The notes beneath the pieces were generated by a model. The model saw only the letters and a list, made by a program, of their open reading frames with translations. It did no database searches and was not told where the DNA came from. 64,000 bases of DNA, taken from the NCBI GenBank assembly GCA_030603365.1, contig JAUVXV010000015.1, forward strand, positions 32,001 through 96,000, written 5' to 3'. Below, in pieces: positions 40,011-41,471 of the stretch (position 1 is the first letter of the stretch; every line of letters starts with the position of its first letter). The translations under genes and the position numbers were made by a program. Source of the DNA: Candidatus Heimdallarchaeota archaeon (lineage in GTDB: Archaea; Asgardarchaeota; Heimdallarchaeia; Heimdallarchaeales; Heimdallarchaeaceae).

Positions 40011-40181
40011 TCATTAGTTGTTCAGAAACCCGCTTTTTACAACTTTTCTTGGACATTTGGAACAAATATATCAAATTCCTGACAAATAGTTTATAAATAG
40101 AATTTGTCATACTGTCATGTTAAATTAGTTAGAAAGAAAGAAGTATTATCGGGGTTTAAATAGGGAAGTCTAGGGAAAGAA

Positions 40182-41441
40182 GTGATGAGTACTGTTCCTC
40201 GAGCAGAAGTCATGGAAACCAAACACCATCCAGCTTTGAGTAGACTGTGCCATCAAACCAAGAATCTCTACAATCGAGCAAATTATCTGTGTAAACAACA
40301 GCGGTTAAAGCAAGGAACTGTTTCTTCTTATTATGAACTGGATAGAAAACTTAAAACTGAAGCATGCTACCAAGTTCTCCCAGCTCATACTGCACAACAC
40401 ACACTGAAATTAGTAGGAAGAAACTGGAAAGCGTTCTTTCGAGCAAGAAGAGAATGGAAGAAGCATCCTACACGGTTTTTAGGTCCTCCTCGTCCTCCTC
40501 ACTACAAACCTCCTACTGGAGAAACGATAGCTATCATTTCTAATCAACAAGCAAAAATAAGAAATGGGAGACTTATTTTACCCAAGAAGCTTCCCTTTAT
40601 TCTCAAAACACGATTGAAAGCAACAGATAAACTACGAGAGATACGCATCATCCCTCGAGGAGTAGGGTACACTGTAGAGATTGTTTATCACAAACATCTT
40701 CCCAAACGGGTGCAGAAAAACCAGAGGAGGAAAGGTGCACTAGATTTGGGTTTAACCAACCTCGTTACCTTTGTGGATAATATCGGCTCACGACCGATTA
40801 TTGTCAAGGACGAGGGAAAAGGAATTAAAAGTATCACACAATATTATTTGAAAAAAATCAGTTTATTACAGGAACAGTATGCACAACAGCAAAGAGTAAA
40901 TTTGAAAAAAATAACCAAACTCAACTATGGTCCTGCTTATTACCGAGCTAAAGAACGATGGAGGAGAAAAGTCAAAGATTGCTTCCATAAGCTCAGCCAT
41001 TTTTTAGTAGAGTTATGGGAGAAACGAGGATTGCACACCATTTATATTGGCTACAATCCTCGTTGGAAACAACAGGTAAGGTTACGTAAAAAAACCACTC
41101 AACTGTTTGTTATCGTCCCATTTCATAAACTAATCACTCTTCTCCAGTATAAAGCTGAAGAAAAAGGCATCATAATCGAGTTAGTAGATGAAAGCTACAC
41201 TTCCAAATGCAGTTTCCTAGATAACGAACCAATTAAAAAGCATCTCAGGTATGCAGGTAAAAGAATTCACCGAGGAATGTTTCGTTCAGCTCAAGGGACT
41301 CTTATTAATGCTGATGTGAATGCAGCGTACAATATTCTGGTGAAAAGCGATCCGCAAGCACTTCCATCTCGAAGTGTGGGCGGGGTAGGAGGGTACGTGG
41401 TTTACCCGCTTAGAGTGAGCTACCCAGCAATGACACTCTAG
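40182..41441 (+). CDS. tnpB: RNA-guided endonuclease TnpB (IS200/IS605 accessory protein family), rearranged RuvC-II type
   Basis: KNLYNRANY, ALDLGLTNL (RuvC-I), IYIGYN..WKQ, VDESYTSKCS and INADVNAAYNI (RuvC-III). Confidence 0.95.
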   Translation: MMSTVPRAEVMETKHHPALSRLCHQTKNLYNRANYLCKQQRLKQGTVSSYYELDRKLKTEACYQVLPAHTAQHTLKLVGRNWKAFFRARREWKKHPTRFLGPPRPPHYKPPTGETIAIISNQQAKIRNGRLILPKKLPFILKTRLKATDKLREIRIIPRGVGYTVEIVYHKHLPKRVQKNQRRKGALDLGLTNLVTFVDNIGSRPIIVKDEGKGIKSITQYYLKKISLLQEQYAQQQRVNLKKITKLNYGPAYYRAKERWRRKVKDCFHKLSHFLVELWEKRGLHTIYIGYNPRWKQQVRLRKKTTQLFVIVPFHKLITLLQYKAEEKGIIIELVDESYTSKCSFLDNEPIKKHLRYAGKRIHRGMFRSAQGTLINADVNAAYNILVKSDPQALPSRSVGGVGGYVVYPLRVSYPAMTL

Positions 41442-41471
41442 AAAAGATTATGTTAATATGCCAGTATGACA
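41340..41471 (+). ncRNA. predicted omegaRNA scaffold overlapping the tnpB 3' end
   Basis: Established position for TnpB omegaRNAs; GC-rich 3' segment with GGGTA-CGTGGTT-TACCC stem; boundaries approximate. Confidence 0.45.

Follow-up and report, generated by a model that had tools for sequence, protein, structure and literature searches.

This locus raises the question of which enzyme moves a tnpB gene that is closely bracketed by inverted repeats, and of where the mobile unit ends. An earlier note had placed the gene in a probable Asgard archaeon, on a non-autonomous mobile element mobilised in trans, and had taken the element for a DDE-type transposon (Mu/Tn7/IS21-like) with TG...CA termini and a 5-bp target-site duplication. 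The first part agreed with our results: the element has inverted ends and tnpB as its only gene, it appears to be moved in trans, and its host, like the named relatives, belongs to Ca. Heimdallarchaeaceae. The second part did not hold. Positions are given in the window, the stretch of 64,000 nt that was analysed, and G000 denotes the genome from which the window comes.

Boundaries of the element

The two inverted repeats around tnpB were recovered with the reported 17/19 match, which was reached in 0/1000 shuffles, and with the reported spacing, 77 bp to GTG 40182 on the left and 30 bp from the stop (41441) on the right. Repeats were present at both ends of dozens of relatives, so the expectation of repeats conserved across homologous loci was borne out, whereas a DDE gene with matching repeats was not found in the DDE families searched: the single DDE_Tnp_1 gene of G000 (C12) shared nothing with the element ends. 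The repeats were subterminal instead of terminal. In a logo anchored on the TGTC motif only, conservation continued 12 bp outward, to ATRA on the left and to ATGAT (inward) on the right, and at the right end it dropped to 0.0 bits at the base directly after the AT. DNA matches to homologues ended at 41483. The exact junctions were revealed by an empty allele in a related Heimdallarchaeaceae genome (G010:C136, L036), in which position 40094 was joined to 41484 and the site read ATAGTTT-AT-CATCATTGG, with a single AT and otherwise no duplication. In another close pair, filled L250 and empty L201 with 95-96% identity, exactly one AT was kept, and three diverged empty-site pairs showed a single dinucleotide each (L052/C11, L137/C6, and L242/C16, with AC in the last). 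From the L036 junction of 40094 with 41484, which keeps a single AT, the element was delimited as 40095-41483, with the AT at 40093-40094, the last bases of TTTAT, as the left copy of a 2-bp core. The termini thus lie at the AT dinucleotides 40093-94 and 41482-83 and not at TG...CA. The other copies extended past the repeats and the empty sites carried a single dinucleotide and no 5-bp duplication, two outcomes that the earlier note itself had named as speaking against its model. Its fallback boundaries did not fit either, because TGACAAAT at 40080, the first arm of the TGACAAAT/ATTTGTCA hairpin suggested as the left end, is host flank and also occurs in the empty site, and the right end reads TCAT (41480-83) instead of TCAA.

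The AT-to-AT length of 60 copies was 1361-1441 bp. T was found at -2 in 54/60 and at -1 in 58/60 of them, in junction logos that were partly built in by an anchoring that favoured TT|AT; independent support for the junctions came from the TGTC-anchored logo, which agreed with TT|AT, and from the empty sites. The first base inside the left end varied (G in 38 and A in 20 of the 60), and the right flank showed a weak excess of A, which was its second base in 33/60 (p 0.0008). No duplication outside the AT was found in the 60 copies. GAATT (40100-04) and GAATC (41472-76), which had been proposed as the 5-bp duplication, are located inside the element and are removed with it in the empty site, and the 5-mers at these positions matched 5/5 in 0/60 copies and 4/5 in two. 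A shared 2-bp core and a 2-bp target-site duplication have the same appearance in sequence and cannot be told apart from it.

Table 1. Coordinates of the element, its parts and related loci (window positions unless a genome is named)
Feature	Position	Strand	Remarks
Element	40095..41483	+	1389 bp with one AT core counted (40093-41481 is equivalent); from empty site L036 and the ends of homology
Target motif TTTAT, predicted TAM (TTAT)	40090..40094	+	In the empty site
Left subterminal repeat	40105..40123	+	Two TGTCAT motifs (40105-10, 40113-18), 8-bp period
TATA-like box (archaeal), putative promoter	40155..40162	+	TTTAAATA; 30 nt before ATG 40185
tnpB	40185..41441	+	418 aa from ATG; in-frame GTG at 40182
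Predicted omegaRNA scaffold	41345..41483	+	About 139 nt; overlaps the 3' end of tnpB
Right subterminal repeat	41453..41471	-	Motifs 41466-71 and 41458-63, inverted relative to the left; 12 bp from the end
Right terminus TCAT	41480..41483	+	AT 41482-83 is the right core copy; conservation stops here
Predicted guide	41484..41503	+	Host flank; matches the bases after TTTAT in the empty allele
Mini-elements	G000 C9:113043-113389; C13:224795-225140; L425, L426, L427, L430, L463, L468, L470, L472
Cargo cassette (possible)	G000 C15:220735-223010 (L371)		A surface-type beta-helix gene (540 aa) and a tnpB 3' tail lie between the element ends

Paired motifs at the two ends

The copies shared a common plan that consisted of TT|AT, two 6-bp motifs, promoter, tnpB, omegaRNA, inverted motifs and TC|AT. 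The two motifs of each end were about 8 bp apart and pointed inward, and they probably serve as recombinase binding sites. The distance from repeat to end was 12 bp on both sides in 47/60 copies and sometimes 13 on the left; in the window copy the core A and the start of the left repeat are 12 bp apart. The termini, which read inward ATRA on the left and ATGA on the right, were related. The motif differed between subfamilies (TGTCAT, TGTCTT, TGTCTC, TGTAAC, TGCGA and others), several of which had no TG at the first position of the repeat, and both ends changed together: the left end matched the inverted right end of its own copy at 11.4/14 positions and the right ends of other copies at 8.6. 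In direct orientation, left and right ends agreed at 8.0 positions compared with 7.4 when shuffled, about the level of chance. Folding of the left end was no better than that of shuffles (mean z +0.3; 2/60 below -2), consistent with the view of the earlier note that the ends are not IS200/IS605 hairpins. The inverted likeness together with the lack of a hairpin argues for a protein that binds double-stranded inverted sites and against hairpin ends of the IS200/IS605 type.

The motif type tended to follow the host lineage across two TnpB subclades, with TGTCTT in G004, G007 and G022 and TGTCAT in G000, G008, G010, G012 and G013, which suggests an enzyme shared in trans among hosts that are kin and therefore not independent. 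Several motif types were also present together in one genome. No RE-AT-LE circle junction was found in the assembled sequence.

TnpB and its predicted omegaRNA

The ORF encodes a solo TnpB, as had been stated before (NF040570, E 4e-44; PF01385 and PF07282), with a reduced zinc finger, and a search of PDB sequences with it returned weak Cas12f matches only. The RuvC site was rearranged and consisted of D187, a Gly (G289) where RuvC-II canonically has Glu, a relocated E336, and D377. D187, G289 and D377 were invariant in 85 intact relatives and E336 was found in 84 of them, so that the catalytic triad D187/E336/D377 was conserved in 84-85/85. TvoTnpB and ApmHNuc are active with a Glu relocated in this way (PMC10312701). 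Upstream of the gene, the 30-nt spacing between box and ATG was kept in 43 of the 46 copies that have the box, which also occurs in mini-elements lacking tnpB. These mini-elements keep homology from 41345 onward, which marks the likely start of the omegaRNA scaffold. RNAalifold gave helices for this region, with compensatory pairs in the first hairpin, which overlaps the coding sequence. The empty allele contains TTTAT followed by the guide match, and the filled site has TCAT at this place. A single base separates TCAT from the predicted TAM TTAT and would spare the filled site, by analogy with ISXfa1, in which the filled and empty sites are discriminated by one base (bioRxiv 10.1101/2023.08.09.552727).

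Copies, mini-elements and genomic surroundings

The genome of the window contained some 14 related copies of tnpB, or fragments of it at contig ends, with 54-86% protein identity and with the repeat of the window copy at their ends, and all 24 other genomes of the genus that were searched gave DNA matches, many of which were whole elements. Altogether, more than 100 copies were found in Heimdall archaea (72 full ones plus 40 additional left ends). The tnpB-less mini-elements of about 345 bp contained both ends, the promoter, an extra conserved segment with a structured look, and the omegaRNA scaffold; their RNA had no match in Rfam. One of them (L425) was located directly after a tRNA gene, and one mini-element locus was retained in three genomes with decaying ends. 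Five relatives had no L371 stretch at the syntenic position; the identity there was about 70%, so that the junction could not be read exactly, and capture of cargo by the element ends is possible.

Lone left or right ends were observed beside unrelated genes (G000 C15:72473, C14:84329, C13:283425, C16:74295), where the neighbours were an HTH gene together with a beta-helix gene, another type of TnpB (528 aa) encoded on the opposite strand, or a large surface-type gene. In Heimdallarchaeota 7H_bin4 (L081:2300-3900), a TnpB of only 40% identity seemed to lie between TTATGA and TCAT ends, and AT-type ends may therefore extend beyond the AT-family TnpB clade. Sister TnpBs from Hodarchaeales and other Asgard groups (L139-L168) ended in ATAACCT, with an uncharacterised 244-aa gene upstream in L144 and L145, and one TnpB (P0126) carried an N-terminal MazE/AbrB-like fusion. 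The DNA next to the element (window 39435-40094 and 41827-42600) was 87-97% identical to genomes that are about 70% identical elsewhere, which suggests a recently exchanged region. The neighbouring genes encode a secreted-type protein and a DUF1858/DUF438/hemerythrin/PAS protein, and exact look-ups of the neighbouring proteins found nothing.

Search for the mobilising enzyme

No transposase was found inside the ends of the 72 full copies or the 40 further left ends, which led to tnpB, deletion forms, mini-elements or nothing. Family pattern searches, scans of GTDB, metagenome and viral sequences, and 50%-cluster representatives gave no autonomous member. The genomes were 72-95% complete and many contigs broke at these elements, so a repeated autonomous copy could be unassembled. 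IS607 TnpA was above the cut-off in 11/31 genomes of the family, and those examined had other ends; G008, G010 and G013 contained many copies of the element and no TnpA over the cut-off. Of the remaining families, Y1 TnpA was found in 0/25 genomes of the genus, whose completeness was 72-92%, IS630-type DDE_3 and IS110 each in 1/25 as a fragment, and rve was absent from the own genome of the element. A crude HUH-motif screen of 155 loci gave no Y1 gene.

Three autonomous IS607 elements are located in G000 (L001-L003; C14:340.8-343.5 kb, C16:152.7-155.4 kb, C16:51.3-53.9 kb). They encode a 197-aa TnpA and a TnpB of about 650 aa, with tnpA frameshifted in the third copy. Their core was GT (left AC(C/T)GT, right GCGT), as read from L435 filled versus L439/L432 empty, and provides a local precedent for cores other than GG. 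These TnpAs were rejected as the partner of the element, since their ends carry other motifs as well as the GT core. The single tyrosine recombinase of the genome was also rejected, with no element-type ends found nearby. A further G000 gene (L557:868-1701, on C1) encodes a protein that starts with a long acidic stretch and ends in a recombinase DNA-binding domain (PF07508), with no catalytic domain.

Affiliation of the element and alternatives

As in IS607, both junctions of the element carried a 2-bp core, which was left once in the empty site without any further duplication, and the subterminal inverted repeats were imperfect and contained short directly repeated motifs. Imperfect subterminal inverted repeats with short repeated motifs are described for IS607 ends (PMC6188088; bioRxiv 10.1101/2023.11.20.567912), with the same plan reported for IS607, IS1535 and ISC1926 (PMC6188088); the earlier premise that IS607 ends have no inverted repeats was mistaken. 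In CboIStron, 6-7-bp inverted motifs and matched core dinucleotides are needed for excision, and circles form (bioRxiv 10.1101/2023.11.20.567912). Two IS607 features were missing. The core was AT instead of GG, which is the core of most IS607 members but not all (PMC6188088); ISFba1, for example, has the TAM AGGAG (PMC11061315). Moreover, the unequal distances and unrelated termini of the published, asymmetric IS607 ends (PMC6188088, PMC10691335) were not seen. A serine tnpA was present in none of the copies and stood only beside relatives with no more than 46% TnpB identity. In a tree of 102 TnpBs, the AT family formed one clade (51 rows, SH-aLRT 99) nested in a 76-row group (SH-aLRT 99) that included L143, an intact IS607 with tnpA directly upstream and a TnpB 45.5% identical. 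A serine tnpA was upstream in eleven relatives, and the TnpBs of annotated Helicobacter and Campylobacter IS607 elements were 35% identical. The association with TnpA is polyphyletic across TnpB (PMC10691335), and because TnpA partners switch, TnpB relatives at 35-48% identity are support, not proof, of the partner. Taken together, the element is probably a non-autonomous IS607-like element with an AT core; a place within IS607 in the strict sense is less certain, as no transposase was found and the ends are symmetric.

A broader reading, which we regard as rather unlikely, takes these elements for an orphan TnpB lineage in which the transposase has been lost completely and whose movement depends on an enzyme that has so far had no connection with TnpB elements. 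This would be either a compact, conserved serine recombinase encoded by the host or by integrated islands, or a novel transposase, and it would act on symmetric AT-core ends that also carry omegaRNA-only mini-elements and host surface-protein genes to other places in Heimdall genomes. In its specific form, a compact host- or island-encoded serine recombinase other than IS607 TnpA would act on the ends, and the joint of the circle would resemble a symmetric attP site centred on AT. The only widespread candidates are two conserved serine recombinases of the resolvase family, each about 245 aa and encoded by a solo gene (L004 and L005; G000 C15:328334-329065 and C2:49039-49788), with a short C-terminal part that by eye resembles a recombinase DNA-binding domain and has no PF07508 match; extra paralogues occur in island-like contexts (L486, L489, L491-L493). 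The genes are present in nearly every genome of the genus, including those without IS607 TnpA, which together with ends symmetric about the core and motif variants that track the lineage of (related, and so not independent) hosts would suit such an enzyme. However, their putative recognition helices are almost invariant whereas the end motifs vary, with several motif types in one genome; the genes also occur in genus g11, where the AT-core TnpB family was not found, and no element ends were found near them. This form appears improbable.

On an equal footing with it stands a DDE transposase that duplicates 2 bp of target, as in IS630 and IS30, in which case the true termini would be RA...TC inside the ATs. 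The equidistant inverted ends and the palindromic AT are consistent with this, as is the A excess of the right flank, which fits a symmetric target and equally a dimeric recombinase. The base just inside the left AT, however, is variable, which is unusual for a DDE terminus, and the DDE families searched offered a DDE_3 fragment, no rve and an unrelated DDE_Tnp_1. DDE-linked TnpBs with inverted ends do exist (PMC10691335).

Less probable still, and largely refuted, is mobilisation of the IS200/IS605 type, in which a Y1 (HUH) TnpA would recognise TTAT as target and TCAT as right cleavage site, with the shared AT a coincidence. It predicts the same empty site, and TTAT/TCAT resembles the motif pairs of IS605-type elements. 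Same-strand subterminal hairpins were not found, however, the ends being alike only when inverted, and no Y1 TnpA was found in the element or the genus. The Y1 elements of G043, G180 and G109 carry their own distant TnpB, and those of G043 and G180 have a left end of TTTAC plus hairpin. TvoTnpB, which also has the rearranged site, adjoins an IS605 TnpA (PMC10312701).

Mobilisation by the Cas1 transposase of Asgard archaea (aCas1) or by a recombinase of IS110/IS1111 is very unlikely. aCas1-TnpB loci with repeats have been reported in Asgard archaea (PMC10691335), and a solo Cas1 element with inverted repeats occurs in the host family and left remnants in G000, but its repeats differ in sequence and it has no tnpB; IS1111 elements have subterminal inverted repeats (PMC11187229), but IS110 was limited to the one fragment and the targets of the element share only TTAT. 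The Cas1 element (L312, G043:C36) has 56-bp terminal inverted repeats and a broken ORF, and its remnants were seen in L304, L018, L248 and G000 C15:360083-360373; in L018 they flank a homologue of the window gene 39447-39947. Finally, the DDE model of the earlier note, with ends at 40105 and 41471, is refuted: the repeat starts with TGT and ends with ACA and its flanks match 4/5 in the window copy, but the TG is missing from several subfamilies, the flanks leave with the element, and neither the TG...CA ends nor the 4-6-bp duplication of Mu, Tn7, IS21 and IS481 was found, so that both grounds fail.

Proposed mechanism and implications

If the element is IS607-like, a serine transposase supplied in trans would bind the paired 6-bp motifs that face inward from both ends, and recombination across the 2-bp AT core would release the element as a circle, which would re-enter at another TT|AT site and leave behind an empty site with one AT and no duplication. 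The geometry, one AT and no duplication, is seen at the filled and empty sites, and the chemistry is modelled on that of IS607. TnpB, expressed from the left-end promoter, would load the right-end omegaRNA with the flank as guide and may cut empty alleles (TTAT plus guide match) and not filled ones (TCAT plus guide match), after which repair would restore the element; we infer this cleavage and homing from work on IS607 and IS605 TnpBs.

These results correct the reading of a DDE transposon that captured a nuclease gene and provide exact ends, a predicted TAM (TTAT) and a predicted omegaRNA boundary for a TnpB family with a rearranged active site that is abundant in Asgard archaea and on which a literature search of limited coverage found no paper. 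If the family is IS607-like, the range of cores extends beyond GG to include AT, with GT contributed by the co-resident IS607; GG, AT and GT would then form a natural series for the co-evolution of the serine transposase core with the TnpB TAM. The absent transposase, the mini-elements and the cargo cassette raise the question of which agents mobilise DNA in the archaeal lineage that is nearest to eukaryotes.

Comparison with known systems

The element is probably a variant of the textbook IS607, with an AT core, near-symmetric ends and no tnpA-bearing member so far. It resembles the family (H. pylori IS607, IS1535, ISC1926, ISXfa1 and CboIStron) in the 2-bp core that remains once at the empty site without longer duplication, in short repeated motifs inverted between the ends, in a related TnpB (35-46%), and in a predicted TAM whose last bases are the core and which departs from the right end at the base just upstream of it. 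It differs in its AT core and A/T-rich predicted TAM, in repeats equidistant from both ends with related terminal bases, and in that a tnpA-bearing member was not found. With the IS1341-type tnpB-only elements it shares tnpB as sole gene, presumed mobilisation in trans and an omegaRNA overlapping the 3' end of tnpB, but it has inverted double-strand motifs instead of single-strand hairpins. The DDE-associated TnpB elements (DDE-1 to -6) and the TIR-borne Fanzors likewise have near-symmetric inverted ends around TnpB, whereas no DDE gene, no TG...CA termini and no duplication beyond the AT were found here. The protein itself is similar to TvoTnpB, ApmHNuc and Fanzors in the change of the RuvC-II Glu to Gly with a conserved Glu 47 residues later, and unlike them its RuvC-I reads DLG and not DPG.
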